A DNA stretch of 64,000 nt from Chloroflexota bacterium (GCA_030603665.1 JAUVXJ010000008.1:94900-158899), one strand, 5' to 3'; shown: positions 21,008 through 37,351, numbered from the stretch's first letter. A program made the numbers and translations. Notes: generated by a model not told the origin, from the letters alone.

Positions 21008-21023
21008 TGTGTACCTCGCTTTC

Positions 21024-21082
21024 AGTCTTTCGCCATACTGTGAACACACTCTCGAATGAGCCCCAGTTCGCTGAACTCCCGG
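21024..21082 (-). promoter_or_regulatory. copy A (degenerate) of the dispersed palindrome + phased-heptamer + -10 element, upstream of the PEP-utilising gene
   Basis: Minus sense: GGAGTTCAGCGAACTGGGGCTCAT-TCGAGAG-N4-TTCACAG-N8-AAGACT, then 16 nt to the ATG at 21007. Confidence 0.45.
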
Positions 21083-21093
21083 GAACCTCGCAC

Positions 21094-21795
21094 CTAGCAC
21101 ATGCCAGGCTGGGTTTCATCCGCTGGTGCGGATCGTTGCCTGCCCCGAAGCCACTCCACGATAAGCACGATTCCGGCCACCAGGGGAGCAGCGAACAAGC
21201 TGCCAACAACGAGAAACAGCAGCCGCTGCTCTTCGGCTTCAGTGCCCATAGCCCCGAACGATAGGCTGAACCACCATAAGCCGACACAGAGCCATGCAGC
21301 AGCCACAGCGACGCTCGTCAGAAGCCCCGCGGCAAGGGCCGCTGCCCACTTGCGACGCGGTATCCTGTGCGTGGCGTTCGCGCGGAGCCTCGCGCCGGAC
21401 CACAGCATCCATGCCCCCGCACCCGCGAGAATGGTGGAGAAAAGAGATGCCCCAAGGTAAGGTACCACCTCTAGAGCCCGCGCAGTGGGCAGAAACTTCA
21501 ACCAATGAAAGAGCGAGGGGAGCCAATATACCATCGCTGGCACGCCCAGAACTACCAAGACTCCGCCCCACACGAACCTGGTCATCCGACCACGTTGCGA
21601 TGCGCTCCAGTCACTCCTCCACCTGCCTGCCCCGGACGACACCATCCACGCCCCCAGACCGGCGTTGACGATAGCGCCGAGCAGAGGGATCAGAAAGATC
21701 AGGGGCTCCCCCCCCCAATCGCCCACGCCCACTCGAACATGAAAAGAGAAACAAACGTCGCTGGCACACCGACACCCAGCAAGACCCAGCCACAC
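21094..21795 (-). CDS. integral membrane protein (hypothetical)
   Basis: Long ORF with about 6 hydrophobic helices rich in Trp and Gly. The exact start is uncertain. Confidence 0.5.
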   Translation of the reverse strand: MWLGLAGCRCASDVCFSFHVRVGVGDWGGEPLIFLIPLLGAIVNAGLGAWMVSSGAGRWRSDWSASQRGRMTRFVWGGVLVVLGVPAMVYWLPSLFHWLKFLPTARALEVVPYLGASLFSTILAGAGAWMLWSGARLRANATHRIPRRKWAAALAAGLLTSVAVAAAWLCVGLWWFSLSFGAMGTEAEEQRLLFLVVGSLFAAPLVAGIVLIVEWLRGRQRSAPADETQPGMC

Positions 21796-21867: not shown

Positions 21868-21924
21868 AGTCTGCCACATGGATTTCAAACTGCTCTCAAA
21901 CGGGTCCCAATTCGCTGAACGCTG
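21868..21924 (-). promoter_or_regulatory. copy B of the dispersed element, upstream of membrane-protein gene 21094..21795
   Basis: Minus sense: CGTTCAGCGAATTGGGACCCGT-TTGAGAG-N4-TTGAAAT-CCATGTGG-CAGACT. Confidence 0.5.
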
Positions 21925-22947: not shown

Positions 22948-24468
22948 TCACGAACCAGGCAGCACACTGCTCCGTTGGTGCACCGGCTGCCGATCCTCAT
23001 TTGACAACAGGGTGGCATACGGGCCGAGAAGATCCTCGTACAGGCGGTGATAGAACTCCGGCAAACTCTGTGACTCTCCCTCGTGAAAGGCCCTGAACTG
23101 CGGATCTGTCTTCATCTGGTGTACGAAGCCTCTGAGTCTTGCGACCATTTGTCGCATGCCCAGGGCTCGTGTGAGATGTATCAAGCGTACGATGCCCGAC
23201 GTAGACTCCAGTCTCCTGCGCAGCATCTTGCCGGATGTCAAGTGCGAAAGGATCTCGATGTATCTCTCATAGTAGGTCATGGGGCTGTAGTGCTTCAGTC
23301 TGGTCGCCAGGTAGGGACCCCAATAGAAGGCGAAGGGCATGGAGGTGAGCACCCGTCCTTCGTCTAGATGCTGCTCATATAGTGGTGTCCCTCCGAAGGG
23401 AGTGGGGACGCTGATCAGCGGCCAGACGAATGGAGCTCGGGTGATGAACTCCTTGGTCAACTCCACAGGTTCATCGCCTTCGTCTACGTCAAGCCCAAAG
23501 ATGAAGTTGGCCTGTAGCGCCGGAACATGGTCCCGTATCTGCTCGAAGTGCTCCACCACCCGCTCCAGCTTCTCTCTCCCTGTCACCGCAGACCCAGCAC
23601 CAGCCTTGTTCGAGTAAGCCTTCCACGATTCAACTCCCGGAGCGATGGCGACGAAGCCGACATCTCCGAGTCGCTGCAATCGGGTGGGGCGCAGGATGGA
23701 TAGGGAGCACTCCATGACGTATCGTTTGCGCCCGTCGTGAGATACGCTCTCTAACACCTCTAGCACCTGGTCGAACTTGATGCCGAAGTTGGCGTCGTGG
23801 AAGGCGACCAGCACCCCGGGATACTCCTGCAGGATGAAGCGCAGATCCGACTCCAGTCGCTCCAGAGAGTGTGGTACGTAGGGAGTGTTCCAGTCGACGC
23901 AGAAGTCACAGCTGTATGGACAGCCCGTACTTGTCAGCAATGGGATTGAGGCCAAAGCATGGGGCCTGCCTCGCCAGAAACTGGAGGCGCGGATATACGG
24001 CATTCGCTCTTCCACGCTGGGGACATCCGTGAGCATGCGGCCGCTGGTCACGATCCGCCCCACGGGAGGTTCAAACAGGATGTCGGCGATCAACCTCTTG
24101 TCGCAGTGACGCACTACCACGTCAAAGAACCGCGCGCAGTCATCCGGGAATCCCTTGGCGTGAGCGCCGCCGATGACGGTAAGTGTGTTCTCCCGCCGGT
24201 AGAGCTTCGCCAAAGCATAGGCCAAAGGACTGGCCTGTGTATGGCTTGAGATGAATACCAAATCGAGATCGTTCGGGAGGAGCTGTTTGGGATCCTTCTG
24301 TCCGTAGTAGGTAGCATAGAACACCTCATGGCCAAGGCTCTGGCACCACACGCTCACGGCCTGGGGCATGACGCTGGCGTTCTGCTTAAGGGCCAGATGT
24401 GCATATCCCTTCTGATTCCAAGGGGTATTGACCGCGGCGTTCAGTAGCTCGAGGACTCCTACCCTCAT
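22948..24468 (-). CDS. B12-binding-domain radical SAM protein
   Basis: AGAGGAG SD before the internal ATG (MRVGVLEL). N-terminal Rossmann-like B12-binding-type domain (VFISSHT...TVIGGAH), then the CPYSCDFC CxxxCxxC motif. Confidence 0.85.
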   Translation of the reverse strand: MRVGVLELLNAAVNTPWNQKGYAHLALKQNASVMPQAVSVWCQSLGHEVFYATYYGQKDPKQLLPNDLDLVFISSHTQASPLAYALAKLYRRENTLTVIGGAHAKGFPDDCARFFDVVVRHCDKRLIADILFEPPVGRIVTSGRMLTDVPSVEERMPYIRASSFWRGRPHALASIPLLTSTGCPYSCDFCVDWNTPYVPHSLERLESDLRFILQEYPGVLVAFHDANFGIKFDQVLEVLESVSHDGRKRYVMECSLSILRPTRLQRLGDVGFVAIAPGVESWKAYSNKAGAGSAVTGREKLERVVEHFEQIRDHVPALQANFIFGLDVDEGDEPVELTKEFITRAPFVWPLISVPTPFGGTPLYEQHLDEGRVLTSMPFAFYWGPYLATRLKHYSPMTYYERYIEILSHLTSGKMLRRRLESTSGIVRLIHLTRALGMRQMVARLRGFVHQMKTDPQFRAFHEGESQSLPEFYHRLYEDLLGPYATLLSNEDRQPVHQRSSVLPGS

Positions 24469-24668
24469 GCACAAATCTCCTCTTGGCCAGCGCCAGGCCA
24501 TGCCTGCACGTGCATTGGCTGGGAGGTTCCGCCAGCCTACTCACACGGCACAGGCATTGCCGCCGGGGTTCGCGACGACAGAGGAAGGCATGTGCACCGC
24601 TGTCCCCGTATCATCGCTCACCCCCTTGCGAGACCGCTTTCCTCGTGATTTTGATAGTCTACAGTTAC

Positions 24669-24759
24669 AGTCTAGCAGACAGGTCTCAAGAAGATCTCAA
24701 ATCGCGTCCTTGCGGGTCTCAAGAAGGCCTCAAATGAGCCCCAGTTCACTGAACTCCGG
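24669..24759 (-). promoter_or_regulatory. copy a/D (best copy) of the dispersed element: palindrome AGTTCAGTGAACT, four TTGAG(A/G)N heptamers on an 11-bp grid, N8, TAGACT
   Basis: Heptamers sit at 24733-24727, 24722-24716, 24700-24694 and 24689-24683 (minus sense). The hexamer is at 24674-24669. The upstream part overlaps the last codons of gene 24730..25431. Confidence 0.6.
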
Positions 24760-25431
24760 TAGTCCTCCCCAGTAGATCCCCCAGCCTGCAAAGAACAGCA
24801 TCGCGACCACGTAGCTGAAAAGGAAGAAGAGCAGGAGGGGCTCCTCGCGAAGCTTGTGCCTCCCCCATACCAGACCAGCCATTGTCACTGCAATAGCGAA
24901 GGGAATGCCCAAGAGCGCGGTTTCGCCTTCAACGACTATGGCGAAGAACGTCAGGCCGTGGATGATCCCTGCCAGGACCACAATACCTGGCGATGATCTC
25001 TCTCCCGTGAACGGGTTTTGCCATTGCCGAATCAGCAACAGGGCGGAAAGCCCCACAACCCCCAGGTGCCACAAGTAGTGGCTCAAGACCTCGTCATAGA
25101 AACTGGTGAGGATAGAGGCATCACTGCCAGTCATCTCCTCCAGCAGATGGCCAATGGAGTTGGCGGCCAGGTGCATGCCTTGACCCTGAACCCAAAGTGC
25201 CGCCAGAACCATGAAGGCCACGCCTTCGCCAAGGCTGGGTTTCTTCTCTTGCCCAACCTGGTACAAGAGCCAATAGAGAGGGATGAGGAGCAAGGGGGTT
25301 AGGAGGTCAAAGACATCGCCCAGCTTCATCAAGGGGTATGGGCCAAACTGAGTCTCTAGGACGGGCGGCCCCATGAAGAACACCGCGAAGGCTACAGAGA
25401 ATACGAGGATCAAGCGATGCAAGCGAGACAT
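24730..25431 (-). CDS. integral membrane protein (hypothetical, about 7 TM)
   Basis: AGGAGG lies 6 nt before the ATG at 25431 (MSRLHRLILVF). The protein is hydrophobic throughout and ends LPEFSELGLI. Confidence 0.65.
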   Translation of the reverse strand: MSRLHRLILVFSVAFAVFFMGPPVLETQFGPYPLMKLGDVFDLLTPLLLIPLYWLLYQVGQEKKPSLGEGVAFMVLAALWVQGQGMHLAANSIGHLLEEMTGSDASILTSFYDEVLSHYLWHLGVVGLSALLLIRQWQNPFTGERSSPGIVVLAGIIHGLTFFAIVVEGETALLGIPFAIAVTMAGLVWGRHKLREEPLLLFFLFSYVVAMLFFAGWGIYWGGLPEFSELGLI

Positions 25432-25782
25432 AGCAGGCCTCCTATTCACTGGGGACGCCCGGCGCCAAGTCACCGGCATGGGCCTTCCAAGCCATATACC
25501 GTCCTACGAGGTAGCCGCCCTTCGTCTCTTCATCTGAGCCCTCCTTTGATCGCAGCTCAGTCTCATATATACGTGAGAGGCGACTATGGCGCGCCGGTGC
25601 ATTCTCTGGCCGGTCAGGGGTCAGCGCACACGGCGAGATCCTCGGTCTGTGCGATTGGTGCCAATGGAGCAGTCTAGCTGCGCTCAACGTCGGCAGGCGC
25701 TCCTCTTCCGGCGCCCGTCGGTCGTGGTCTAGACTCCAGGGGTCCCTCCTCCCATGTGGAGTCCTTGGAATCAAGAGCAGGC

Positions 25783-25815
25783 AACGAAAAGCCCGCCTGC
25801 TTGCGGCAGACGGGC
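25783..25815 (-). terminator. intrinsic terminator GCCCGUCUGC-CGCAA-GCAGGCGGGC-UUUUCGUU
   Basis: 10-bp GC-rich stem (one G-U pair), a 5-nt loop, and a U-tract immediately 3'. Confidence 0.6.
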
Positions 25816-25919
25816 GTCTGTGGTAAGGTAGCACGCAGCCGAGGTGCCCGTCCCGCGCCTTGGCCATAGCCTCACCGGTTCTGCAGGACCAGGTGAGGCT
25901 TCCTTTTGTGGAGCGTTGT
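25783..25919 (-). ncRNA. candidate ~135-nt small RNA or terminator/antiterminator leader
   Basis: Bounded by a consensus promoter (25954-25926) and an intrinsic terminator (25815-25783). It contains a 9-bp hairpin AGCCUCACC/GGUGAGGCU, and a GACGGGC segment able to pair with the 5' arm of the terminator. Confidence 0.45.
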
Positions 25920-25925
25920 GGAACT

Positions 25926-25954
25926 AGTATACCAGATGCTGCCACATTTGTCAA
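25926..25954 (-). promoter_or_regulatory. sigma70-type promoter TTGACA-17 nt-TATACT
   Basis: Read directly on the minus strand: TTGACAaatgtggcagcatctggTATACT. Confidence 0.6.
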
Positions 25955-26168
25955 GCACTCTAGATAGTACGTACGATACATTAGACACTGGCACAGTCCT
26001 GGCTCTGCATGCGGAACCAGATCATGGGGCGGACGTGGCGTACTGCCAGTGCGGCGGAGGCGAAGAACCCTTCGGCCGCCGTATCCCGTTACGCCTCTCG
26101 TCGCCCTTCGTCGTTGCATCCTACATCACCCCACTGCACACAAACCTCGCTCGGGTTTGTCGACCAAC

Positions 26169-26200
26169 AGCCTAGCATAAGGGTCTCAAAATCGTCTCCG
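26169..26200 (-). promoter_or_regulatory. copy c of the dispersed element (short form), divergent from the SARP-like regulator gene
   Basis: Minus sense: GGAGACGATT-TTGAGAC-CCTTATGC-TAGGCT. Confidence 0.5.
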
Positions 26201-26328: not shown

Positions 26329-26357
26329 TTGCGTTGGTCTTCCCATTGTGGTAAACT
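26329..26357 (+). promoter_or_regulatory. possible promoter of the regulator gene (TTGCGT-17 nt-TGgTAAACT)
   Basis: Hexamers and an extended -10 TG read from the sequence, about 90 nt before the ATG at 26446. Confidence 0.3.
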
Positions 26358-26445: not shown

Positions 26446-29400
26446 ATGCCTACACTGCGCTTCTACTTGCTGGGTACGTTGGACATCCACCGCGATGGCG
26501 ACCGCCTGCCGAAGCCCCCGACGCTCAAGTCTCAGTCCTTGCTGGCCTACCTGGTCGTCCATCGTCACAGGCCACAGTCCCGGGATCGGCTGGTCGGGCT
26601 CTTCTGGGGAGACCGCCCAGAGCGCAAGGCGCGCGGATCTCTATCTACCGCCCTCTGGCACATCCGTCGTTGTCTCCCCGGAGACTGCGTGGACAGCGAT
26701 CCCCAGGCGGTACAGTTTGACCCCGAGAGTGATGTCTGGCTGGACGTTGAAGAGTTCGAGTCCTGCGTCTCCCAAGATGACATCACTGCCCTTCAATCGG
26801 CGGTGGCACTGTACCGTGGTGACCTCCTGGACGGCTTCTACCATGAGTGGGTGATCGATGAGCGGTACCGGTTGGAGACGCTGTTCATGGAGGCGCTGGC
26901 GCGACTGATGGCGGGACTCGAGGCGAGGGGAGTGAGCGATTCCTCTCTAAGCGTGGCCCTGCGGTTGCTCGAGAGAGACCCGCTGCGCGAGGATGCGCAC
27001 CGGTTGGCGATGCGAGCGTACTGCCGTCTGGGTCACCGCAACGCCGCGTTGGAGCAGTACCGCCGTTGCTGTGAGATCGTGCGGGAGGAGCTGGGCGCGG
27101 ATCCGATGGTGGAGACCACCGAGCTGTACGAAGAGATCATGGAAGGGCACTTCCCAGCTGGCCCAGTGCCGGAGGTAGTTCCGCCCACCGCGGCAGAGAT
27201 CCGACCGGCGCCCATCGCTGGGCGTAGTCCGTTGGACGTCATGGGACGTAGCAGGCTGCTAGGCAGGGATGACGAACTGGCGTTCCTGGACGAATGCTGG
27301 CAGCAGGCGGAAGAGGGGCGGGGAAAACTGGTGCTGATGAGCGGCGAGGCGGGCGTGGGCAAGAGTCTCATCGCGGAGGAGTGCGCCAATCGCCTTCGGG
27401 CGCAGGGCGTGCGCGTCCTGTGGGGTAACTGCTACGAATACGGCAGGGCCTTGCCCTATCAACCCGTTGCCGAAGCGCTGCGAACGGTTCTGCCGAGCCT
27501 GACATCGCAGGAACTGACGGACTTCCCTTCCTGGTCGCTGCAGGAGGCGGCTCGTCTCGTGCCAGAGGTGCTGGAAAAGCGCCCTGGGCTCGAAGTCACG
27601 CCATCCATTCCCTCGGACGAGCAGCGAGCGCGGCTTTACGAGGGAGTGGCGCGTGTGCTTACTGGAATGTGTTCTCTTGGACCCATCCTCATCGTCCTGG
27701 AGGACCTTCAGTGGGCCGGCGGTTCCACGCTGCAACTGATCCACTATCTGGCCAGGCGACTGACTGATCATCGCGTACTGATGCTGTGCAGCTTCCGGTC
27801 TGAAGAGGTTGGGCTAGGGCACCCTTTGCAGGCCTTGCGGCGGCGACTGATTCGGGACGGGCTGGCGGTGCTTCTCCGCGTGTCACGCCTGTCTCCGTCG
27901 GCGGTGGAAGCGGTGGTTAGGGATATGTCGGGGGCGGGGGATGAGGTGCTACCCCTGGCGAAGAGGCTGTATCGAGAGACGGAGGGCAACGCGTTCTTCT
28001 TGATAGAGACGGTCAAGGGTTTGTTTGAAACAGGCGCCATAAGGTTGGAGGGAGGAGTCTGGAGGGGCGACTTTGCCGGGATCAGCGAGGGGAAACTTGC
28101 CTTGCCCTCCAGCCTGAGTGAGGCCATCGGGGCACGGGTTCTCAACGTGACTGAAGACGCGCAGGAGGCGGTGTGTCTCGCCTCTGTCCTTGGTCGCGAG
28201 TTCGATTTCGACTTACTCGACGCTGTCTGGGGTCAAGGTGAAGGGGCGACGTTGGAAGCATTGGACGATCTGCTTCGCAGTCGACTGATAGACGAGGGCA
28301 GCGGGGCCGAGGCACGCGATTACGTCTTCACCCATCACAAGATCCAGGAGGTTATCTACTCTTCGATGTCACGCCGCCGGCGACAGCGGGCACACGCACT
28401 TGTGGGGACGGCGATGGAGAGTCTCTATCGCGCCCCCACGGAGGATTTGGCTGGTGAACTCGCCTTCCACTTCCAGGAGGGACGGCGGCACGACAAGGGG
28501 CTGACGGAGAAGGCGATCACCTACCGGCTTCAGGCGGGGGATCGGGCGCGCACGCTGTACGCCCACCAGGAAGCGATCGACCACTACGAGCAGGCCCTCG
28601 CGTTGTTGAAAGAAGAGATGAACTATGAAAAGGCTGCGAGGACGCTGATGAAGCTGGGGCTGACCCATCACAATGCCTTTGACTTCCAGCAGGCGCGCGA
28701 GGCCTTCAACCAGGGGTTTGCGCTACGGCAGCTGGCGGGCGAAGACCGGCCCTCAGATGCGCGTGCGCCAGCACCTCAGTCCCTCAGAGCGGCCTGGCAC
28801 GTTTTTGCGGTTGACCCAGCCATGGCCGAGGACTTTCCTTCGGTCGAAGTTGTAAGGCAGCTCTTCAGCGGCTTGGTAGACCAGAGTGCAGAGATGGACG
28901 TAGTACCGGACGTGGCCAGAAGTTGGGAGGTGTTGGAGGGCGGGCGCAAGTACGTCTTCCATCTGCGGGACGACGTGCACTGGAGCGACGGCAAGCCGGT
29001 GACGGCCGGGGACTATGAGTATGCCTGGAAGCGGGTGCTCAACCCGAAGGGCGGATCGGCCGGCGCTCTGATCCTGTACGACATCAAGGGAGCGAAGGCT
29101 TTTCATCGGGGAGAGATCACCGATCCGGGCATGGTTGGCGTGCGCGCTCAGGATCCGCTCACCCTGGTCGTGGAACTAGAGGGACCAACCAACTATCTCC
29201 CCCATTTGATGAACCACTGGCTAACATACCCTGTGCCCCGCCATGCCGTTGAACGATACGGAGAGGGTTGGACGGAGGTTGAGAACATCGTCACCAATGG
29301 CCCTTTCAGGTTGGAGTCCTGGCGGCCGGGGAGGTCCATGACCCTGGTGCTTAACTCCGACTACCATGGCCGGTTCAGGGGCAACGTGACGCGGGTCGAA

Positions 29401-30267
29401 CTGGCCTTGGACGTCGAGCCCCGCGACGAGTTGCGGATGTACGAGGCTGACGACCTCGACATCGGCTATCTCTGGGAGTTGTCGCCCCTGGAGATGGACC
29501 GCGCTCGCCAGCGTTACGCGGATGAATACCTGTCCGGACCCAGTCTCGCCACCTGGCTTGTGGACTTCAACATGGGTGAGCCGCCATTCGACGATGTTCA
29601 GGTGCGGCGAGCCTTCGTTATGGCGACCGACCGAGAGACGTTGGCCGGAGTGGACATGAGAGGGCACTTCTTCCCGGCCACAGGTGGGGTCATTCCTCCC
29701 GGCATGCCGGCACACTCGGTGGGGATCGCACTTCAATACGATGTTGAAGGGGCACGACAGCTCTTGGCCGAGGCAGGCTATCCAGAGGGCAGCGGCTTCC
29801 CCGCAGCTGTCTTCCTGTCACCACCAAGTCCTGCCGTTCAGCAGGCCATTGAACGGCTGCAGGTTCATTGGGAGGAGAAGCTGGGTGTGGAGATCTCGGT
29901 GGACACAAGGGACTGGCCAGACTACTTCGATAGACTCCGCAAAGGGCAGGGCCAACTGTTCTTCAGCTCATTCATGGCGCGCTACCCCGATCCCGACCAC
30001 TGCCTGCGAGGGCTTTCCAGCGGGCAGCGCACACGGGGGTGGAACGAAGCCTACGCTGGGTTGCTCGAGAAAGCCAGACGGGCCATGGACCAAGAGGTCA
30101 GGATGACGTTGTATCGGCAGGCGGATCGAATCCTGATCGAAGAAGCACCGGTCATACCCATAGGCTATGGACGACAGCACCTGTTGGTGAAACCGTGGGT
30201 GGGCAAGCTCCCTACCTCGGCGATCAAGTACTTCTTCTGGAAGGACGTGACCATCGAGCCACACTAG
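26446..30267 (+). CDS. SARP-type wHTH + BTAD + AAA/NB-ARC-like ATPase + TPR regulator fused to a C-terminal family-5 solute-binding (OppA/DppA-like) domain
   Basis: GAAGGAGG SD. The N-terminus LLGTLDIHRDG....P..KSQSLLAYLVVH......R..L..LFW is OmpR/SARP-like. BTAD helices run to about residue 240, followed by a GEAGVGKS Walker A and TPR-like helices. From about residue 800, VPDVARSWEV..GGRKYVFHLRDDVHWSDGKPVTAGDYEYAWKR continues to the end and is SBP_bac_5-like. No TM or signal peptide was seen. Confidence 0.85.
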   Translation: MPTLRFYLLGTLDIHRDGDRLPKPPTLKSQSLLAYLVVHRHRPQSRDRLVGLFWGDRPERKARGSLSTALWHIRRCLPGDCVDSDPQAVQFDPESDVWLDVEEFESCVSQDDITALQSAVALYRGDLLDGFYHEWVIDERYRLETLFMEALARLMAGLEARGVSDSSLSVALRLLERDPLREDAHRLAMRAYCRLGHRNAALEQYRRCCEIVREELGADPMVETTELYEEIMEGHFPAGPVPEVVPPTAAEIRPAPIAGRSPLDVMGRSRLLGRDDELAFLDECWQQAEEGRGKLVLMSGEAGVGKSLIAEECANRLRAQGVRVLWGNCYEYGRALPYQPVAEALRTVLPSLTSQELTDFPSWSLQEAARLVPEVLEKRPGLEVTPSIPSDEQRARLYEGVARVLTGMCSLGPILIVLEDLQWAGGSTLQLIHYLARRLTDHRVLMLCSFRSEEVGLGHPLQALRRRLIRDGLAVLLRVSRLSPSAVEAVVRDMSGAGDEVLPLAKRLYRETEGNAFFLIETVKGLFETGAIRLEGGVWRGDFAGISEGKLALPSSLSEAIGARVLNVTEDAQEAVCLASVLGREFDFDLLDAVWGQGEGATLEALDDLLRSRLIDEGSGAEARDYVFTHHKIQEVIYSSMSRRRRQRAHALVGTAMESLYRAPTEDLAGELAFHFQEGRRHDKGLTEKAITYRLQAGDRARTLYAHQEAIDHYEQALALLKEEMNYEKAARTLMKLGLTHHNAFDFQQAREAFNQGFALRQLAGEDRPSDARAPAPQSLRAAWHVFAVDPAMAEDFPSVEVVRQLFSGLVDQSAEMDVVPDVARSWEVLEGGRKYVFHLRDDVHWSDGKPVTAGDYEYAWKRVLNPKGGSAGALILYDIKGAKAFHRGEITDPGMVGVRAQDPLTLVVELEGPTNYLPHLMNHWLTYPVPRHAVERYGEGWTEVENIVTNGPFRLESWRPGRSMTLVLNSDYHGRFRGNVTRVELALDVEPRDELRMYEADDLDIGYLWELSPLEMDRARQRYADEYLSGPSLATWLVDFNMGEPPFDDVQVRRAFVMATDRETLAGVDMRGHFFPATGGVIPPGMPAHSVGIALQYDVEGARQLLAEAGYPEGSGFPAAVFLSPPSPAVQQAIERLQVHWEEKLGVEISVDTRDWPDYFDRLRKGQGQLFFSSFMARYPDPDHCLRGLSSGQRTRGWNEAYAGLLEKARRAMDQEVRMTLYRQADRILIEEAPVIPIGYGRQHLLVKPWVGKLPTSAIKYFFWKDVTIEPH

Positions 30268-30317
30268 CCCTCGTGGAGGAAAGAGTCCCTTTCCCAATGT
30301 GACCAATCGACTAGACC

Positions 30318-30347
30318 GAGCCCCGGCTCCTCAATAGAGCGGGGCTC
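30318..30347 (+). terminator. hairpin GAGCCCCG-N14-CGGGGCTC after the regulator gene
   Basis: 8-bp perfect stem about 50 nt after the stop, followed by TCTATGTGTGG (a weak U-tract). Confidence 0.4.
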
Positions 30348-30463
30348 TCTATGTGTGGCGCTGGCGCAGACATGTGGCACTGGGTGCCCTTGCCAGCGTG
30401 CCTCCTTCGAGGAGCATCGAGGAAGGAGGCGATTTTCTTCGAACTGTGAGATGACCGAGCGAT

Positions 30464-30495
30464 TTGAGAATCTTTTGAGACCGCCGTGGTACCAT
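30464..30495 (+). promoter_or_regulatory. copy d of the dispersed element (plus orientation): TTGAGAA-N4-TTGAGAC-CGCCGTGG-TACCAT
   Basis: Same heptamer spacing (11 bp) and the same 8-nt gap to a TAnnAT hexamer as the minus-strand copies. It lies about 200 nt upstream of ORF 30699. Confidence 0.5.
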
Positions 30496-30698
30496 GCTAC
30501 TGCAGCAAGTCGTGGCATGATGCGCAGACACGCTACCTGGCAGTTGGTCGACGTGCAAGCATCTCTCGGCACAGCTGCGATATTGCCGAAACCTTGCCGG
30601 GCGAGTCTAAGTAGGTGCTTGCTGCTCCGGCAGACACGGGAACACTCCGAGCTTCGGCCGGACTGTGCCTCGGTAGATAAGGAAGAAGAGGACCCTAT

Positions 30699-30914
30699 AT
30701 GACCGAACCATCCGGAGTTCCCCGCGTGATCACCTTTGTGGTCCGTTTCTGGCGAGAGTGGTCCGCTGCTGGCATGCGCTGGCGGGGACGCATTCAACAC
30801 GTGGAGAGTGGGGACGCGGCCTCATTCACGGATTTGAACAAGATGATGCGCTTCCTTCGTTCTTCAGGTGCATTGGGCGAGGACGAGAGCCTGCCCGAAG
30901 AGCTAGAGGAGTGA
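30699..30914 (+). CDS. small conserved-looking hypothetical protein (71 aa)
   Basis: Purine-rich SD. The pattern VITFVVRFWRE....WRGRIQHVESGDAASF.DL..MMRFL resembles small proteins I recall from Chloroflexota and cyanobacteria. That comparison is from memory and unverified. Confidence 0.45.
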   Translation: MTEPSGVPRVITFVVRFWREWSAAGMRWRGRIQHVESGDAASFTDLNKMMRFLRSSGALGEDESLPEELEE

Positions 30915-31047: not shown

Positions 31048-32511
31048 TCATCCTGTTTGGGCGTGGCCAGGCGGTCTCGGCTCCCGAATCTTGAGCAGGG
31101 TCAGCGAAGAGAGGAGAAAGCACACGCCGTAGATGGAGAAGATCACCAAATAGCCCAACCCTGGACTGCTCATGTTGAAGAAGTCAGCCATGGGCCCGCC
31201 GATCCCCGCGCCCACCACGCCCGCGCCCGCACCTGCCAGGTTGGAGATACCGAGATACCGCCCTGCCTCGTCGGGGGGCACAAGGTCGGTCCCCAACGCC
31301 CAGTTGGTGGAGATGAAGAGCCCCGTGGCCGACCCGATGATCAAGCCGCTGAGGTAGATCGTAGACAGGTCTGTGGAGACGAGGAGCAGGAAAGTGCCTC
31401 CCGCAGCGAGCAGGCCAGCGATCAAAAGGAGGCGCTTGCGGCTGAATCGGTCGGCCAGGAAACCGCCAGCCAGAGCCGCGACGCCGGTGAACAGCCCTAC
31501 CACCGCAATGAGGAGGGCTGTGGCCTGACCAGGATTGGACAGCTTGACCACATCTTGAAGGAAGAACCGCGCGAAGCCCTGGATGGAGCCTACCGCTGCG
31601 AAGAATAGCAGACGGTTAACGACCCACCAGACGAAGGAGGGGTAGCGACGCACTCCCTCACCGATGCCCACCCGCGCGCTCAGCCAGACGCCCACCACGA
31701 TAGCGCCGGCCATGGCCACCAGCCCGGCCAGGCCCACAGCCACCAGTTGCAGGACTCCACTCTCCCTCAGCAGGGCACCCACCAAGCCCACCAATCCTCC
31801 GGAGACGCCGGTGGCCACCACGAAGATCAAGGTTAGCAGCACGATCCGTATCACGGGCGGCTTGAGCGGCGTCAGCGGGCTCTCTCGCAGCGGCTCCTCG
31901 CGAACCGTCATCGTGGGCAGCATGGTGATGAATAGCGGGATCATGACCACCAGGATGGCGAGCTCCACCCGCCCCTGATCGACAAGCACCCCGATACCTG
32001 GCAGGAAGAGCACCGGCAGTAGCTGCATCACCGCCATCACGCCCGAGGCTTTCCCGCGCTGATCCTCCGGAACCAGGTCGGGGATCAAGCCTTGATAGGC
32101 GCCATGGGCGATGTTCGAGGAGAATTGCAGGAAGAGAACGGCGATGAGGAGCATCCAGAAACTGCCTGACACGGCGACGAGGGCCAGGAAGACTAGGTCT
32201 AGGAGGGTGCCTGCGAAGATGAAAGGCCGTCGCCGACCCCATCGCAGCGTCGATCGATCGCTGAGCATGCCAGCCAGTGGCTGGACCAGGATAGCGACGA
32301 CGAGACCTGCGGATCTGAGACCACCATAGTAGGTGTTCTTCAAGGCTTCGGGCACGAACTGCTGCACCAGATAGGGCATGATGACGGGGGTCAGACTGAC
32401 AGTGACGAAGCCCATCCCCAGCCAGTATGCGTTGATGGTGAGGTACTCTATGCCTCGCAGCTTGGGCGTGCGTCCTTGCGCTTGATCTACTGTGGGTCTA
32501 GCTTCTGTCAT
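31048..32511 (-). CDS. MFS transporter
   Basis: 12-14 TM profile. The loop motif SDRSTLRWGRRRPFI between TM2 and TM3 is typical of MFS/GPH-like carriers. Confidence 0.85.
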   Translation of the reverse strand: MTEARPTVDQAQGRTPKLRGIEYLTINAYWLGMGFVTVSLTPVIMPYLVQQFVPEALKNTYYGGLRSAGLVVAILVQPLAGMLSDRSTLRWGRRRPFIFAGTLLDLVFLALVAVSGSFWMLLIAVLFLQFSSNIAHGAYQGLIPDLVPEDQRGKASGVMAVMQLLPVLFLPGIGVLVDQGRVELAILVVMIPLFITMLPTMTVREEPLRESPLTPLKPPVIRIVLLTLIFVVATGVSGGLVGLVGALLRESGVLQLVAVGLAGLVAMAGAIVVGVWLSARVGIGEGVRRYPSFVWWVVNRLLFFAAVGSIQGFARFFLQDVVKLSNPGQATALLIAVVGLFTGVAALAGGFLADRFSRKRLLLIAGLLAAGGTFLLLVSTDLSTIYLSGLIIGSATGLFISTNWALGTDLVPPDEAGRYLGISNLAGAGAGVVGAGIGGPMADFFNMSSPGLGYLVIFSIYGVCFLLSSLTLLKIREPRPPGHAQTG

Positions 32512-32645
32512 GATTCTTCCTCCTTCGTCACGCTGTCACCCAGGGCCTTCGACTAGAAGCCTCCGTCGGAGACCACACTCCAAGAGACGGAGAGGCGACA
32601 AGGGGACAGGGAGGTAGGGCAGGGGTAGAGCCTCTGCCCCTCGGT

Positions 32646-33794
32646 TCATGGGCCCCAGGCTGGTGCGTGGTCCCGACCAGTCTCAGGGCGGCCCACGATC
32701 GGAGGGTTGTGAGTGAGGCGGGTGACCTCACTGCCATCGGTCCTCACCTTGAATATCTCATATGTATACCCGCCGCAATGGGATACAAAGGCTATCCATT
32801 CCCCGTCGGGCGACCAGGAGAGATCCGTGTCTGACTCCGATATCGCGGTGGGTTCGCAGTCAGCGCTACTCGACTCGGTGAGGCGAGTGAGCTCGCTACC
32901 GTCGGCCCTCACCTTGTACATGTCCCAGCCGGCTTCAGCATCCATGGTCCCGTCCTTCGTCGACATCTCGTCGCCAAACGAGACAAAGGCTATCCACTGG
33001 CCGTCAGGAGACCAGCAGGTGTGGTCCGCAATGGCGCTGCCGGCGAGCCTGGTGACTTCGCTGCCGTCGACCCTCATGCTGTACACTTCATCGTTTCCAT
33101 CGTGCCTGGAGCCAAAGACTATCCACTCTCCGTCGGGTGACCAGGACGGACTCCTGTCCCAGCCAGGGTCATTCGTCAGGCGCGTGACCTGGCTGCCATC
33201 GGCCCTCGTCTTGTAGATCTCGAAGTTGCCATCGCGGTCAGAGACAAAGGCTATCCACCGACCTTCAGGTGACCAGGAAGGATCTGAGTCCGAGGCAGGG
33301 TTGTTGGTGAGATTGGTGAGGTGGCTGCCGTCGTCCGCTACCTTGAATATCTCCTCGTTCCCAAGAGGCGCCTCCGATGTGGCTTCAAGCTTCGACTCAA
33401 AGGCTATCCAATTGCCGTCCGGTGACCAAGACGGACTTCGCTCCCAGGAAGGGTCATTGGTGACAGCTATGACCTGGGTACCATCGGCCCTCATCTTGTA
33501 TATGTCGAACTTGCCATCGCGGCGCGACTCAAAGGCTATCCACTGGCCCTCAGGCGACCAGGAAGGGCAGGAGTCCGGGGCAGGGTTGTCGGTGAGGTTG
33601 GTGGGCTGGGTGCCATCCGGCCTCATTTTGTATATCTCCTGGTTCCCATCGCGACTGGAGACGAATGCTATCCACTGGCGGTCCCCCCAGGGAGTGGACT
33701 CCACTTCCGCTCCAGGGACTGCGGGCAGCGCTCCTCTACATCCACAAACCGCCAATAGGACCGCTAGTATCAACAGTGGTATCCACTTTCTCAT
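32646..33794 (-). CDS. PD40/TolB-like beta-propeller lipoprotein
   Basis: Lipobox LLAVCGC, then at least 6 repeats of WSPDG.WIAF.S.RDGN.EIY....DGS....LTN.P..D..PSWSPDG. Confidence 0.85.
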   Translation of the reverse strand: MRKWIPLLILAVLLAVCGCRGALPAVPGAEVESTPWGDRQWIAFVSSRDGNQEIYKMRPDGTQPTNLTDNPAPDSCPSWSPEGQWIAFESRRDGKFDIYKMRADGTQVIAVTNDPSWERSPSWSPDGNWIAFESKLEATSEAPLGNEEIFKVADDGSHLTNLTNNPASDSDPSWSPEGRWIAFVSDRDGNFEIYKTRADGSQVTRLTNDPGWDRSPSWSPDGEWIVFGSRHDGNDEVYSMRVDGSEVTRLAGSAIADHTCWSPDGQWIAFVSFGDEMSTKDGTMDAEAGWDMYKVRADGSELTRLTESSSADCEPTAISESDTDLSWSPDGEWIAFVSHCGGYTYEIFKVRTDGSEVTRLTHNPPIVGRPETGRDHAPAWGP

Positions 33795-33852
33795 CTCTTC
33801 CCCTCCTCCGCTTTGGACAGGCTCTGTTGGTTCACCCTGGCGAGGTGGTCAC

Positions 33853-34818
33853 TCACTCTTCGATCTCCACCACGCCAAACCCAGCGACGTACTGGTTCAG
33901 GAAAGCGTCCATGTAGCCTTTGAAGGCATCAGGGTCTGTCTTGATGCACTGAGCGTGGGGCGCATCCCAATCGGTCAGAAACAGCGCCTTCCGGTCGTGG
34001 GCGATGTTGGAATAGATGGCTTCGGAATGGGACGCGGGGATAGATTCGTCTTGCAGCGAGTGGATCAAGAAGACGGGTGCCCGGATGTCTCGCGCGGCCA
34101 ACATGGGCGAGACCGCCGCAGGCTCGAAGTCGGCGCGCCAGCTCGCAAAGAGAAGCACGGTGGGGATCAAGACGTACCTCCCGAGGGCGCCGTACCGCTC
34201 CTCCGCCTGTTCCCCGAGAAGTGTAGGCAAGTCCTGGAAGGGCGCTTCGGCAGCAACGAAGGCCAGGTCTGGCTCCAAAGCGGCTGCCTGCAAGACGGTT
34301 GCCGCGCCATAGGACACGCCCATCAGGCCAATCTGGGACGTCTCCAACTCGGTGCGCCGGGATAGCCAGTCCACGACCTGCAGGGTATCTTCCTTCTCGT
34401 AGTAGCCGAAGGTGGCGTACTCGCCAGTGCTCTCACCGTGGTGCCGGGCATCGAACATCACCAGGTGACAGCCGCGGTCCCAGAACAGAGGGGCGTACAT
34501 GAAGGTCTCCACTCGGGCGCCCCCACGACCATGGAGCAGCACGACGCCGCAGTCGTGGTCTAGCTCATTCTCGAAGAACCACCCTGAGAGGACGATGTCG
34601 GCGCCCACAGCGAGCGAGATATCTTCCGGTTCCGGCAGACCCAGTTCATCCAGGTCATACGGGCCCAGGACTGGCTCTGTGCGCTCGTGGATCTCTTCCA
34701 AGGTGCTTTGTTTGAAGGCCACGACGGCGCCGGATAAATACCAGCAATTCCAGAGGTAGAAGCCGGCCACCAACAGCAGGACGACCAACATAGCAGTCCC
34801 GAGCACCTTGCGTCTCAT
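33853..34818 (-). CDS. membrane-anchored alpha/beta hydrolase (paralogue of 15297..16307)
   Basis: GGAGGAGG SD before the internal ATG (MRRKVLG). GLMGVSYGA nucleophile elbow. It is collinear with the other copy over its full length. Confidence 0.8.
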   Translation of the reverse strand: MRRKVLGTAMLVVLLLVAGFYLWNCWYLSGAVVAFKQSTLEEIHERTEPVLGPYDLDELGLPEPEDISLAVGADIVLSGWFFENELDHDCGVVLLHGRGGARVETFMYAPLFWDRGCHLVMFDARHHGESTGEYATFGYYEKEDTLQVVDWLSRRTELETSQIGLMGVSYGAATVLQAAALEPDLAFVAAEAPFQDLPTLLGEQAEERYGALGRYVLIPTVLLFASWRADFEPAAVSPMLAARDIRAPVFLIHSLQDESIPASHSEAIYSNIAHDRKALFLTDWDAPHAQCIKTDPDAFKGYMDAFLNQYVAGFGVVEIEE

Positions 34819-35161
34819 CGACACATGCCTCCTCCAGTGTGGATGTCGAGCTTGTCGTCCGAGACTCAACCCCTGCCGGCTCTAGGGCGCGCCGGTTCAC
34901 TCCAGCTTGCCTGCCTCGTTGGCCATCGTGGCACCCGGCACCTCGTTGATCGGCAGCCTCGATTTGCGAACTGCGTAACCAAGTCTAGTACAATTGTCAC
35001 ATGGCAGCAAGGACGAGATCTCCCTGCACTATATGGCGCCATCACTGCGGAGAGGTTCCTCTGACTGCCTCCAGTGATGGACAACAGCCCGAGTGCTCTC
35101 CAGGGAGGCTTCGCAATCGGGCGCGCCGTCACCCTCCCGCACAGAGACGATCTGCCGTGGG

Positions 35162-36325: not shown

Positions 36326-36363
36326 CTTGCCCTCCCTTGTCTCCAAGTCGTGCAGCCGGCCCG

Positions 36364-37073: not shown

Positions 37074-37138
37074 AGGCTACCACAGCGGTCTCAAGAAAGG
37101 CTCAAATAGCGTCTCCACAGGTCTCAAAAGGGCCTCAA
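37074..37138 (-). promoter_or_regulatory. copy b of the dispersed element: TTGAGGC, TTGAGAC, (GGAGACG), TTGAGCC, TTGAGAC on an 11-bp grid, N8 (CGCTGTGG), TAGCCT
   Basis: Heptamers sit at 37138-37132, 37127-37121, 37116-37110, 37105-37099 and 37094-37088. The hexamer is at 37079-37074. The predicted TSS is about 45 nt before the ATG at 37023. Confidence 0.6.
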
Positions 37139-37351
37139 ACCGCCGCTTCGGCCCTCAGGTTCAGGTCGGCCAGGCCTCGTGGGAGCCCTGAACAGGAAAC
37201 CTCAAGGTCCCTCTTGCCCACGCCACGTGCCTTATTGCACGCTGGCGCTGACCTCTTCTGCTTGTTCTTGATCTCTTGGGTGGTTGTCCGCCTGTCGGTG
37301 CACCTCGCCATAAGAGAGCGATGGCAGAACCTGTTGGCCGCGACCACCAGA

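Follow-up and report, generated by a model that had tools for sequence, protein, structure and literature searches.

What does a solute-binding domain of a type normally found outside the cytoplasm do at the C terminus of a DNA-binding regulator? This question is raised by a gene in a 64,000-nt stretch of DNA from a Chloroflexota bacterium (GCA_030603665.1, JAUVXJ010000008.1:94900-158899; hereafter the window). We analyzed the regulator, its homologs, and their surroundings in silico. The reading that we favor, to which we give a probability of roughly 0.7, is that the protein is a cytoplasmic ligand-gated SARP-STAND activator of a local regulon, in which the TPR sensor array of large SARP and SARP-LAL regulators has given way to a complete solute-binding protein (SBP, Venus-flytrap) domain. 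It builds on features observed in silico, i.e., the architecture, the intact NTPase motifs, the SBP fold, the swap in the sensor slot, the diversification of the pocket, and the layout, conservation, and covariation of the operators (Table 1).

Domain architecture and distribution of the regulator

SARP-STAND-SBP regulators are a real and widespread Chloroflexota gene type. The ORF in the window starts with ATG and has no internal stop or frameshift. Its product begins with a winged helix followed by a BTAD, the order typical of the SARP family, as seen with both Pfam and phmmer, in which aa 3-380 align to AfsR and aa 4-232 to EmbR. The Trans_reg_C match in the winged helix (aa 28-80, E 3e-3) is under the Pfam curated cutoff, and a PF00486 match is precomputed for some homologs. 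After the BTAD come a P-loop NOD with its Walker A and B motifs, a helical arm, and finally the sensor at the C terminus, an order that corresponds to a STAND layout, and TIGR03903 matches aa 263-730 at 3e-48. Among the matches listed, G303, G305, K306, and R451 are invariant in 120/120 homologs and D420 is kept in 118/120, with the motifs GEAGVGK[ST] and LEDLHW (nearly) invariant in the same set. Since the NOD is AAA_16/LAL-like and not the NB-ARC of AfsR, the chassis is nearer to SARP-LAL regulators. The BTAD, AAA_16, and AfsR matches bear out the AfsR-like SARP/STAND N-terminal half, including the GEAGVGKS P-loop, that a first-pass annotation had described, and the TPR helices that it had reported come down to about one or two repeats (TPR_12, E 1e-6, just under the Pfam curated cutoff).

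The C-terminal part is a complete SBP_bac_5 domain, as had been claimed from the segment VPDVARSWEV..GGRKYVFHLRDDVHWSDGKPVTAGDYEYAWKR, which is indeed present. The Pfam match extends over aa 819-1194 (1.3e-70) and profile positions 2-364 of 368, and in phmmer this part aligns with almost the entire mature DppE, OppA, and MppA proteins (E 1e-58 to 1e-54). An AF2 model of the domain (pLDDT 91.7, pTM 0.89), a structure prediction such as the first-pass annotation had suggested, superimposes on DppE, OppA, and MppA with TM 0.85-0.88 over about 510 columns at 26-27% identity, and both the two-lobed fold and the scaffold residues are strongly conserved. By sequence, the sensor groups with the peptide-type SBPs OppA, MppA, and DppE; the previous assignment to peptide/oligosaccharide binders of family 5 holds for the peptide clade, and we found no evidence for oligosaccharides.

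Where this domain resides is suggested by what precedes it. The protein has no signal peptide or lipobox by sequence and hydropathy, its N terminus being the SARP winged helix, and 783 cytoplasmic-type residues come before the SBP. No TM-grade segment was found in the regulator, in agreement with the original description: the top 19-residue hydrophobic window (KD 1.8) is the Walker-B strand, and a KD scan of the TPR-SBP linker, which in the homolog comparison has the highest entropy among all protein regions, yielded no TM-grade window either. Annotated neighbors within ~10 kb, and the loci L080-L083, contain no BPD_transp_1 or ABC_tran match. These findings support the prediction that the SBP domain is cytoplasmic. 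In the closest SBP-less paralogs, long TPR_12/TPR_MalT arrays follow aa ~720, and because this MalT-like array stands at the same position, we place the SBP in the STAND sensor slot.

At least 120 full-length homologs in JGI, ENA, NCBI, and Logan assemblies, and about 25 from named MAGs, share this layout down to 53% identity, which bears on the question of distribution raised by the first-pass annotation. Several paralogs occur per genome (L003, L007, and L013 in one MAG). A fusion of two genes near 28.7 kb had been considered as a possible artifact; besides the intact reading frame, independent unitigs of four metagenomes run through nt 28728-28795 without any gap or joint. The view that the fusion is functionally uncharacterized also held: our literature search found no publication on it, and a 2024 SARP review has no SBP class among SARPs. 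The architecture is, however, already in database annotation, under the IMG name 'ABC-type oligopeptide transport system substrate-binding subunit/DNA-binding SARP family transcr...', and is therefore uncharacterized rather than unseen.

Table 1. Features of the regulator locus, in window coordinates; promoters are predicted
Feature	Position (nt)	Strand	Description
Weaker fifth site	21880..21912	-	TTGGGAC-N4-TTGAGAG-N4-TTGAAAT-N8-CAGACT; degenerate, low confidence; upstream of 21094..21795 and of PEP-utilizing enzyme gene 18332..21100
B12-binding radical-SAM enzyme gene	22948..24501	-	517 aa; conserved divergent predicted target in this clade
Promoter A	24669..24735	-	four heptamers (two pairs 33 nt apart), N8(..TGC)-TAGACT; upstream of radical-SAM gene
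Two overlapping ORFs	24730..26119	-	225 and 249 aa; downstream of Promoter C
Promoter C	26169..26200	-	CGGAGAC-N4-TTGAGAC-N8(..TGC)-TAGGCT; divergent from regulator; ~45 nt upstream of ORF 25442..26119
Regulator gene	26446..30267	+	1273 aa; wHTH-BTAD-NOD(AAA_16)-arm/short TPR-linker-SBP_bac_5
OmpR-type winged-helix domain	26446..26745	+	~aa 1-100; recognition helix holds ARGSLSTALWHIRR (aa 62-75)
BTAD	26782..27138	+	aa 113-231; Pfam E 1e-25, over cutoff; AfsR/EmbR alignment
AAA_16-type NOD	27253..27783	+	aa 270-446; Pfam E 6.5e-29
Walker A	27343..27366	+	GEAGVGKS, in AAA_16 NOD
Walker B	27691..27708	+	IVLEDL, in AAA_16 NOD
Helical arm and short TPR	27784..28740	+	TPR_12 match aa 707-761, nt 28564-28728
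Pro-rich variable linker	28741..28794	+	~aa 766-783; no TM segment
SBP domain	28795..30264	+	aa 784-1273; complete cluster-C SBP (OppA/DppE/MppA type), fills STAND sensor slot
Arg1179 codon	29980..29982	+	OppA Asp419 position (peptide alpha-amino anchor)
Terminator-like GC hairpin	30318..30347		GAGCCCCG...CGGGGCTC; past regulator stop; weak T-tract
Promoter D	30464..30495	+	TTGAGAA-N4-TTGAGAC-N8(..TGG)-TACCAT; upstream of 71-aa gene
Conserved small gene	30699..30914	+	71 aa, unannotated; FVVRFW...WRGRIQHVESG core, acidic disordered tail
Candidate operon	31048..37023	-	downstream of Promoter B; inferred from common strand and spacing only; unknown (219 aa), PD40 propeller (401 aa), S9/S15-type alpha/beta hydrolase (338 aa), PD40 propeller (382 aa), MFS transporter (487 aa)
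Promoter B	37074..37138	-	four heptamers (two pairs 33 nt apart), N8(..TGG)-TAGCCT

The ligand pocket

Pocket residues were mapped by sequence alignment to OppA, using a residue list part of which we take as given. In the window protein, Asp419 of OppA is replaced by Arg, Arg413 by Phe1173, His371 by Ala1130, and Lys307 by Asp. The anchor residues of OppA, in which Asp419 holds the alpha-amino group of the ligand and Arg413/His371 its C-terminal carboxylate (PMC5736914, PMC6305025), are thus absent. Among the matches listed, Arg is found at the Asp419 position in 11/13 closest homologs, and the Asp anchor is kept in 77/120 (64%) family members. Because the Asp anchoring the alpha-amino group has become Arg in this clade, an ordinary oligopeptide with a free N terminus is an unlikely ligand, and the concomitant loss of the carboxylate anchors means that canonical peptide binding may be absent. 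Across the family, entropy in the pocket amounts to 2.69 vs 1.42 bits (p 6e-8); within the clade of the window protein, it is 0.70 vs 0.56. Pocket positions are therefore fixed inside clades and hypervariable across the family, which is a specificity-type diversification. The sampled loci of the regulator family revealed no functional theme among neighbors that would point to a ligand, and when the window and 21 full-length loci were compared (22 sequences), no neighbor family recurred. Together with the TPR array in the slot of the paralogs and the SARP-type operators nearby, the pocket diversification supports the original suggestion that the SBP is the intracellular sensor of a transcription activator.

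Candidate operators and targets

Within 11 kb, four predicted promoters combine TTGAGAC heptamers phased by 11 nt with an extended -10 that follows after a spacer of 8 nt. The composite SARP promoter pattern has 4 matches in the window, vs 0.03 expected, and the operator pattern has 5, vs 0.08 expected, while 1.08 Mb of related loci contain 40 operator matches, mostly just past the regulator stop, vs 0-1 in shuffles. Predicted operators are found at the same positions in L001-L004, and the phylogenetic footprint agrees. In SARP promoters, the 3' repeat is 8 bp from the -10 and the repeats are 11 or 22 bp apart (PMC10936776), and the SARP-LAL box is 7+4+7 (PMC5930380); at the sequence level, the window sites fit the published repeat phase, the -10 spacing, and the 7+4+7 box. 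Residue 64 is non-Arg in 7/7 TTGAGAC loci and Arg in 15/15 TTGACAC/TTGGCAC loci, and residue 67 is Thr in 3/3 TTGGCAC loci, which suggests that the operator heptamer co-varies with these two recognition-helix residues in a comparison that ignores phylogenetic non-independence.

Promoter D is an invariant block in four orthologs, at the same position in L001-L004, and an equivalent of Promoter A precedes the radical-SAM ortholog in L001/L002; in both cases, roughly 160-200 nt separate the promoter from its start codon. Promoter C is conserved in L003, and the two ORFs downstream, which have no family match, are absent from L001/L002. Conceivably, the predicted operators serve a different SARP paralog encoded in the same genome.

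The small gene downstream of the regulator

The 71-aa gene accompanies SBP-type and TPR-type regulators alike in about 45/79 loci, on the strand of the regulator and either downstream or directly upstream of it, and the arrangement with the small gene 3' of the regulator and the box is found in 30 related loci. The GC hairpin between regulator and Promoter D is partly conserved in L001/L002. The conserved part of the small protein is predicted to be a folded beta-hairpin/helix core rather than the tail, and its N terminus, MTEPSGVPRVITFVVRFWREW, is a predicted beta-hairpin and not a signal peptide. The protein has no Pfam or NCBIfam match.

Proposed mechanism and alternative explanations

By analogy with MalT and AfsR, a ligand-gated activator of this type might work as follows. 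At rest, the C-terminal arm and the sensor would keep the AAA_16 NOD and the SARP domain autoinhibited. Binding of a small peptide-like ligand would shut the SBP lobes and release this inhibition, leading to ATP-dependent activation or oligomerization. SARP protomers would then sit side by side on the 11-nt-phased TTGAGAC heptamers, which would replace the -35 box, and from there, 8 nt upstream of the extended -10, they would recruit RNA polymerase. Predicted targets are the 71-aa gene, the divergent B12/radical-SAM gene, the two unknown ORFs, and the PD40/S9-hydrolase/MFS row.

A different possibility, which we consider unlikely, is that the SBP, or the TPR array in the paralogs, is a protein- or peptide-docking module rather than a sensor of small metabolites. 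The 71-aa protein would dock there through its disordered acidic C-terminal tail, or as a processed fragment, in an intracellular feedback loop of positive or negative sign. This would resemble RRNPP systems (PlcR-PapR, NprR-NprX, and Rap-Phr), where the regulator senses peptides through a repeat domain and activates a small gene located behind its own. The presence of the small gene next to both types of regulators and downstream of the family operator, the predicted disorder and acidity of its product's tail, and the ability of both OppA-type SBPs and TPRs to bind peptides would all fit, and Arg at the amino-anchor position in this clade would favor a carboxylate or acidic ligand. However, it is the core of the small protein that is conserved, and acidic tails occur with either pocket type, so no covariation of tail and pocket is evident. 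Linkage to regulators with differing sensors rather suggests a partner of the common N-terminal chassis, or a shared output gene. Moreover, a protein with no signal peptide and a folded conserved core is not a secreted signal of the RRNPP type, and unlike RRNPP regulators, the one studied here has an NTPase and a SARP domain. Quite improbable, in our view, is the wider proposal that regulator and 71-aa protein form an intracellular circuit in which the SBP/TPR reads the acidic tail or a fragment of it, the regulator both driving and sensing its partner. If true, this would be a cytoplasmic analog of RRNPP autoinduction on a SARP-STAND chassis, widespread in Chloroflexota and previously unrecognized, and the change from Asp to Arg at the ligand anchor would have adapted this clade to a ligand that ends in a carboxylate.

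The four anchor substitutions in this clade also bring to mind that the SBP might have lost ligand binding and be just a structural or autoinhibitory lid, the input coming from elsewhere, e.g., phosphorylation (as in AfsK-AfsR) or nucleotide state, all the more as phosphorylation and ATP modulate AfsR, for which no inducer is known. This is very unlikely, since the whole two-lobed fold is strongly conserved with its scaffold residues, the pocket residues are constant per clade and differ between clades as expected for changing specificity and not decay, and most homologs among the matches listed retain the Asp anchor. There is a negligible chance that the ORF results from an assembly or annotation artifact joining a SARP gene to an oppA-like gene, or that the SBP is exported for transport, despite the unusual combination and the normally extracytoplasmic location of SBP_bac_5 domains. 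The homologs are independent and full length, and the locus shows neither stop nor frameshift, signal peptide, lipobox, TM segment, or ABC permease neighbors; an assembly chimera is refuted by the homologs and by the gap-free unitigs.

Comparison with known systems

The favored ligand-gated activator shares several features with AfsR-AfsS from Streptomyces coelicolor: the order of SARP (winged helix and BTAD), NOD, arm, and C-terminal sensor; direct repeats phased by 11 bp that lie 8 bp from the -10; and a small gene directly 3' of the regulator that carries such a box, here a predicted one. AfsR (8k60) is also the best PDB sequence match for the N-terminal half. Unlike AfsR, an actinomycete protein with a TPR-array sensor and an NB-ARC NOD, the Chloroflexota regulator has an SBP_bac_5 sensor and an AAA_16/LAL-type NOD, and its score of 55.6 bits against the NCBIfam AfsR equivalog, vs a cutoff of 1430, sets it outside AfsR orthology. 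The 71-aa protein is set apart from AfsS by Pfam/NCBIfam profile matches only, of which it has none. SARP-LAL regulators (PimR, FilR, SanG, and PolR) similarly have a SARP domain fused to a LAL/guanylate-cyclase-like AAA_16 ATPase, operator heptamers with 4-nt spacers in 22-nt boxes, and a role as cluster-situated activators of neighboring genes, which for the regulator studied here is predicted. However, their C-terminal ends are helical/TPR-like, none having an SBP domain, their heptamer consensus is CGGCAAG vs TTGAGAC here, and the PimR operator does not overlap a -35 box.

MalT from E. coli and GutR provide the working model, in which an inducer-bound sensor relieves autoinhibition and allows ATP-dependent multimerization at arrays of repeated sites, and the TPR_MalT model matches the SBP-less paralogs of the regulator. 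Unlike the regulator in the window, MalT has a LuxR-type C-terminal DNA-binding domain and a superhelical-repeat sensor, not a periplasmic-binding-protein fold. With OppA, MppA, and DppE, the cluster C SBPs of ABC importers, the regulator shares the full three-domain fold, although its SBP is fused to a transcription factor and has no export signal or transporter partner. In LacI/GalR and LysR-type regulators, too, evolution has turned a transport-type binding fold into the pocket through which a transcription factor senses its effector inside the cell. These regulators have other DNA-binding domains and no NTPase switch, and their pockets are of SBP type I or II, with about 250-300 aa, vs the ~500-aa cluster C domain with its extra domain in the regulator described here.

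Architecture of the regulator

The 1273-aa product of ORF 26446..30267 combines, as established in silico, a SARP DNA-binding and activation module, an intact STAND NTPase and a substrate-binding protein (SBP) domain with clade-specific pockets in a single cytoplasmic protein. Pfam-A domain calls agree with the wHTH-BTAD-AAA-TPR-SBP_bac_5 layout proposed in the first-pass annotation, although two of the domains lie below cutoff, and the C-terminal SBP_bac_5 match on which that layout depended covers nearly the full profile (see table). A comparison with PDB sequences pairs the N-terminal 800 aa with AfsR (aa 3-380, E 1.7e-13) and EmbR, and the C-terminal part, over almost the entire mature proteins, with Bacillus subtilis DppE and Escherichia coli OppA and MppA (E 1e-58 to 1e-54). 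The latter matches are far better than those to DppA (~1e-29) or NikA (~1e-17), which assigns the sensor to the oligopeptide/murein-peptide clade. The two parts are joined by a short, variable and Pro-rich linker (about aa 766-783). The nucleotide-binding domain (NOD), which matches TIGR03903 at 3e-48, is AAA_16/LAL-like rather than NB-ARC, so the chassis (wHTH-BTAD-NOD-arm) is closer to SARP-LAL regulators than to AfsR itself. Judging from its motifs, the NOD looks functional: G303, G305 and K306 of Walker A (GEAGVGK[S/T]) are found in 120/120 homologues, D420 of Walker B (LEDLHW) in 118/120, and Arg451 is invariant among them.

A Kyte-Doolittle scan of the regulator revealed no TM-grade segment, its peak of 1.8 being the Walker-B β-strand, and it is the SARP wHTH, not a signal peptide, that forms the N terminus, in line with the earlier reading that both targeting features are absent. 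The regulator displays in silico all testable features of SARP and STAND proteins. The SBP_bac_5 fold is bona fide, yet it lacks the hallmarks of transport SBPs, namely an export signal, ABC partners and, in the window clade, peptide anchors.

Many relatives recovered in our genome survey match only aa 1 to about 720, although they are 1100-1310 aa long. Their C-terminal parts consist of long TPR_12/TPR_MalT arrays, to which a DUF1670/HTH_11 tail is added in some. Since these SBP-less paralogues carry TPR arrays after the shared N-terminal part, the SBP sits in the sensor slot of a common chassis. One TPR-type relative (L023, 65% identical over aa 1-722) shares a contig with an SBP-type copy (L004). 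Among the C termini of L053, L054, L058-L061, L065 and L075, several carry a second, DUF1670/HTH_11/DeoR-like HTH after their TPR arrays, and one relative (L033:9999-10910) has an α/β-hydrolase (UPF0227) instead of a sensor on the SARP-NOD chassis. These variants point to modular swapping of sensors and outputs in this family.

Features of the regulator and its surroundings
Feature	Position	Strand	Remarks
Regulator ORF	26446..30267	+	ATG start, no interruption
Trans_reg_C	aa 28-80		Pfam-A E 3e-3, weak, below cutoff
BTAD	aa 113-231		Pfam-A E 1e-25
AAA_16	aa 270-446		Pfam-A E 6.5e-29
TPR_12	aa 707-761		Pfam-A E 1e-6, just below cutoff
SBP_bac_5	aa 819-1194		Pfam-A E 1.3e-70, profile positions 2-364 of 368
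TPR/SBP junction	28728-28795
Site A	24669-24700	-	downstream: B12/radical-SAM gene
Site C	26169-26200	-	downstream: two ORFs without family match, divergent from regulator
Site D	30464-30495	+	downstream: small 71-aa ORF
Site B	37074-37105	-	downstream row: unknown protein, two PD40 propellers, S9/S15-type hydrolase, MFS transporter
Degenerate fifth site	21880-21912		three heptamers
TGgTAAACT (extended -10)	26349-26357		probable promoter of regulator
Small partner ORF	30699-30914	+	71 aa
Leader of small ORF	30496-30698		about 200 nt
ORFs over leader	30264..30800; 30355..30702	-; +	probably spurious
Two overlapping ORFs	24730-26119	-	249 and 225 aa
PEP-utilisers enzyme	18332-21100	-	922 aa
ORF overlapping the latter	21094-21795	-	233 aa
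Pentapeptide-repeat protein	16371-17630	-	419 aa
PD40 propellers and hydrolase	32646-36367	-	propellers of 382 and 401 aa

Distribution

The regulator has at least 1500 matches among 5.8 billion protein clusters, and the best 120 of these, which originate from JGI, ENA, NCBI and Logan assemblies, are all 1165-1325 aa long and share the same Pfam architecture at identities between 53% and 100%. When one genome per GTDB species was scanned with two N-terminal peptide patterns, a survey whose counts are lower bounds, about 25 full-length copies were found, nearly all in MAGs of Anaerolineae, Anaerolineales, Ardenticatenales, Caldilineales or 'Chloroflexia'. On the survey that the first-pass annotation had proposed, at least 120 homologues share the architecture, and the copies from the genome scan lie chiefly in Chloroflexota MAGs. 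Some genomes have several paralogues (e.g., L003, L007 and L013 all come from one MAG); there are no further ones within the window. The possibility raised earlier that two genes had been artificially fused near 28.7 kb did not hold, since the ORF is uninterrupted and unitigs from four metagenomes (marine-sediment or subsurface; three studies) run across the TPR/SBP junction with neither gaps nor joints. Family members also occur on contigs placed in bins of Desulfobacterales, 'beta proteobacterium', Syntrophothermus and Syntrophobacteraceae (L014, MNYK01000147.1, a 7-kb contig with a full-length fusion; L070, CAVPXB010000010.1; L073; L077), which could reflect mis-binning or horizontal transfer out of Chloroflexota.

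The ligand pocket

Structure prediction confirmed the SBP fold. The AlphaFold2 model of the domain, built on a 47-sequence alignment (pLDDT 91.7, pTM 0.89), aligns in Foldseek with DppE, OppA and MppA at TM 0.85-0.88 over about 510 columns. Comparison of the pocket with E. coli OppA (mature numbering), mapped by sequence alone with the WCAD419Y alignment checked, showed that the anchor residues are replaced. Lys307, which we take to serve the carboxylate of tetrapeptides, corresponds to Asp1070. Asp419, which hydrogen-bonds the N-terminal amine of the ligand (PMC5736914), becomes Arg1179, and Arg413 and His371, which contact its C-terminal residue (PMC6305025), become Phe1173 and Ala1130, respectively. 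Position 1179 is Arg in 11 of the 13 closest homologues, and the Asp is kept in 77/120. This charge reversal argues against an ordinary oligopeptide with a free N terminus in the window clade, for which a carboxylate-bearing or N-blocked ligand is plausible.

Across the family, the 21 pocket positions have a mean entropy of 2.69 bits vs 1.42 in the rest of the domain (Mann-Whitney p 6e-8; permutation p below 1e-4), while scaffold residues are invariant. Within the window clade (at least 75% identity), pocket and remainder are conserved about equally (0.70 vs 0.56). Read from the alignment, this is the pattern of a ligand specificity that diversifies between paralogue groups rather than of a decaying domain.

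Predicted operators

Two patterns are strongly over-represented in the window: GTCTCAA-N4-GNCTCAA with at most one mismatch (5 vs 0.08 expected; 0/100 shuffles), and the composite TTGAG-N6-TTGAGAC-N8-TAnnnT read toward the adjacent gene (4 vs 0.03 expected). Significance depends on this stringency or on the composite -10 pattern, as a relaxed 3-mismatch operator search is not significant by itself (11 vs 4.8 expected). The four composite sites (A-D) are all intergenic and at most 11 kb from the regulator, with none in the other roughly 40 kb. Their 8-nt spacers all end in TG-n directly 5' of the hexamer, i.e., an extended -10. At sites A and B the heptamer pair is preceded by another one, placed 33 nt (3 x 11) further upstream. 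The operator layout matches the SARP-LAL box, two heptamers separated by a 4-nt spacer (PMC5930380).

The same elements recur in related genomes. L001, L002 and L003 each contain an exact operator copy on either side of the regulator, the upstream one divergent and the downstream one about 200 nt past the regulator stop, and L004 has a copy downstream; when the downstream regions of orthologues are aligned, the block TTTGAGA-N4-TTTGAGACC...GTGGTA is invariant while its flanks drift. A relaxed scan (TTGA[G/C]AC pair, N8, TAnnnT) of 1.08 Mb of related loci gave 40 matches, vs 0-1 in 20 shuffles, spread over 30 loci and mostly on the regulator's strand. Most lie at distances of a few to about 600 nt (mostly <250 nt) past the stop, for SBP-type and TPR-type regulators alike. 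Moreover, lineages differ in their heptamer, in step with the recognition helix (window aa 62-71, ARGSLSTALW). In counts that ignore phylogenetic non-independence, residue 64 is G, A, Q or H in 7/7 TTGAGAC loci and Arg in 12/12 TTGACAC and 3/3 TTGGCAC loci, the latter three additionally having Thr67. L004 (G64, GAG) and L005 (R64, CAC) are roughly equally related to the window protein. Their position in orthologues, their generality across loci and this covariation lead us to take the operators as the regulator's own. Cognate-looking SARP operators precede at least four transcription units, with operon structures deduced from strand and spacing.

About 90 nt 5' of the regulator ATG, the extended -10 TGgTAAACT lies in a block conserved in L003, CCCATTGTGGTAAACTG, and probably serves as the promoter of the regulator itself. 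TTGAGAC repeats are absent 5' of it, which suggests that there is no direct autoregulation.

A conserved small partner gene

About 200 nt separate promoter D from the small ORF downstream of it, which has a purine-rich RBS and encodes MTEPSGVPRVITFVVRFWREWSAAGMRWRGRIQHVESGDAASFTDLNKMMRFLRSSGALGEDESLPEELEE. Homologues are found by tblastn (E below 1e-4) in about 45/79 related loci, such as L003:4697-4909 and L045:11646-11771; almost all share the strand of the regulator and lie 3' or occasionally just 5' of it, beside SBP-type and TPR-type regulators. The operator is only 45-66 nt before the start codon in L019, L021, L036 and L045. A strict rule that requires an identical heptamer pair no more than 350 nt from the small gene misses many loci because the small gene is there several genes 3' of the promoter. 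The protein, named 'hypothetical protein' in databases, has no Pfam or NCBIfam match. A profile search of 1.84 billion representatives (50% clustering) retrieved 1229 members (E at most 1e-3), almost all of 55-130 aa, sharing a core FVVRFW..WRGRIEHVQSGE..F followed by an acidic disordered tail. In the AF2 model (pLDDT 72), a β-hairpin (aa 9-39) and a helix (aa 40-56) precede the tail; Foldseek found nothing meaningful in the PDB (best E 0.47). The succession of regulator, terminator-like hairpin, SARP box and small gene makes this an afsR-afsS analogue by position alone.

The leader between promoter D and the small ORF is partly conserved and is 35 nt longer in L001/L002. An Rfam scan of the whole window, aimed at a riboswitch in this leader, gave no match; a structured regulatory RNA or a very short ORF might nonetheless be present in it.

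Likely mechanism and alternatives

We favor, with a probability of roughly 0.7, a cytoplasmic ligand-gated SARP-STAND activator with an SBP sensor, which in silico would work like a large SARP, SARP-LAL or MalT-type STAND activator. By analogy with MalT, GutR and AfsR, the C-terminal arm and sensor would autoinhibit the regulator at rest, ligand would close the SBP lobes and release this autoinhibition, and ATP binding would then activate or oligomerize the protein. SARP protomers on the heptamers would replace the -35 contact and recruit RNAP, and operator blocks paired 33 nt apart would suit cooperative binding. Peptide-related ligand chemistry is hinted at, and no more than that, by the peptide-clade sensor in combination with the peptidase-like, PD40 and MFS genes among the predicted targets.

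Alternatively, though this is improbable, the sensor might dock the tail of the small partner protein or a fragment thereof. The idea is attractive, as SBP and TPR modules both bind peptides and Arg1179 would suit a carboxylate, but the tail is the non-conserved part of that protein and no covariation between tail and pocket is evident. Less credible still is that the SBP is a ligand-blind lid with the true input coming from elsewhere, which is contradicted by pocket conservation within clades and diversification between them. An assembly chimera or frameshift near 28.7 kb is ruled out by full-length homologues and junction-spanning unitigs, as is export or membrane anchoring by the hydropathy scan, and we attach virtually no probability to an artefactual or exported protein.

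The fusion architecture is uncharacterized rather than unseen, because database pipelines already label it. A 2024 review recognizes only small, medium, large (TPR) and SARP-LAL classes of SARPs. Our literature searches found nothing on a SARP-SBP fusion, which upholds the earlier claim that this combination has not been functionally characterized. Large SARP/STAND regulators govern antibiotic and specialized metabolism, and what their sensor domains perceive is an open question. OppA-type proteins co-purify and co-crystallize with their ligands, so the question of what switches on a large SARP becomes experimentally tractable here. The recruitment of transport binding proteins into cytoplasmic transcription factors, for which LacI and LysR are precedents, now extends to the large cluster-C class, and SARPs with predictable operators extend well outside actinomycetes. 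With diversified pockets and a simple predicted recognition code (residues 64 and 67 vs heptamer positions 4-5), the paralogue series could yield orthogonal ligand-inducible activator/promoter pairs, and the small partner protein represents a new conserved family with a defined regulatory context.

Gene neighborhood

No family-wide conserved neighbor that could betray the ligand was found in the loci compared, and the regulator has no adjacent ABC permease or ATPase gene in the window or in the sampled related loci. Synteny is limited to orthologue subgroups (rSAM/MFS in the window clade; transglutaminase-core/DUF8292 in L013/L014/L055/L082), as expected for pathway-specific regulators. ORFs 21094-21795, 22016-22768, 24730-26119, 36364-37023 and 37135-40129 have no Pfam or NCBIfam matches. 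The overlapping 249- and 225-aa ORFs between the regulator and the radical-SAM gene have their own SARP-type promoter; in L001/L002 the radical-SAM gene directly faces the regulator without them, so they are a lineage-specific insertion in the divergent region.

The 922-aa enzyme (PPDK_N plus PEP-utilisers) is similar to PEP synthase, rifamycin phosphotransferase and PigC/RedH-type ligases, with every one of these matches scoring under its equivalog cutoff, and its gene overlaps the 233-aa ORF, which lies behind the degenerate fifth site. In the 419-aa protein, an N-terminal zinc ribbon is combined with 11 pentapeptide-repeat stretches; near the fusion in L082/L083 there is also a gene with pentapeptide repeats (5360-5989). 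The two PD40 β-propellers are paralogous and surround the S9/S15-type α/β hydrolase before the MFS transporter, whereas L003 keeps the MFS gene and one propeller and lacks the hydrolase and second propeller. Finally, one orthologue subgroup, 53-55% identical to the window protein, has downstream, behind its TTGACAC/TTGGCAC promoter, a conserved gene set (L013:5254-7630, L055:12092-14324, L082:11933-13869, L014:5977-6964) made up of transglutaminase-core, DUF8292 and one unknown gene, followed in L013 and L055 by the small partner.
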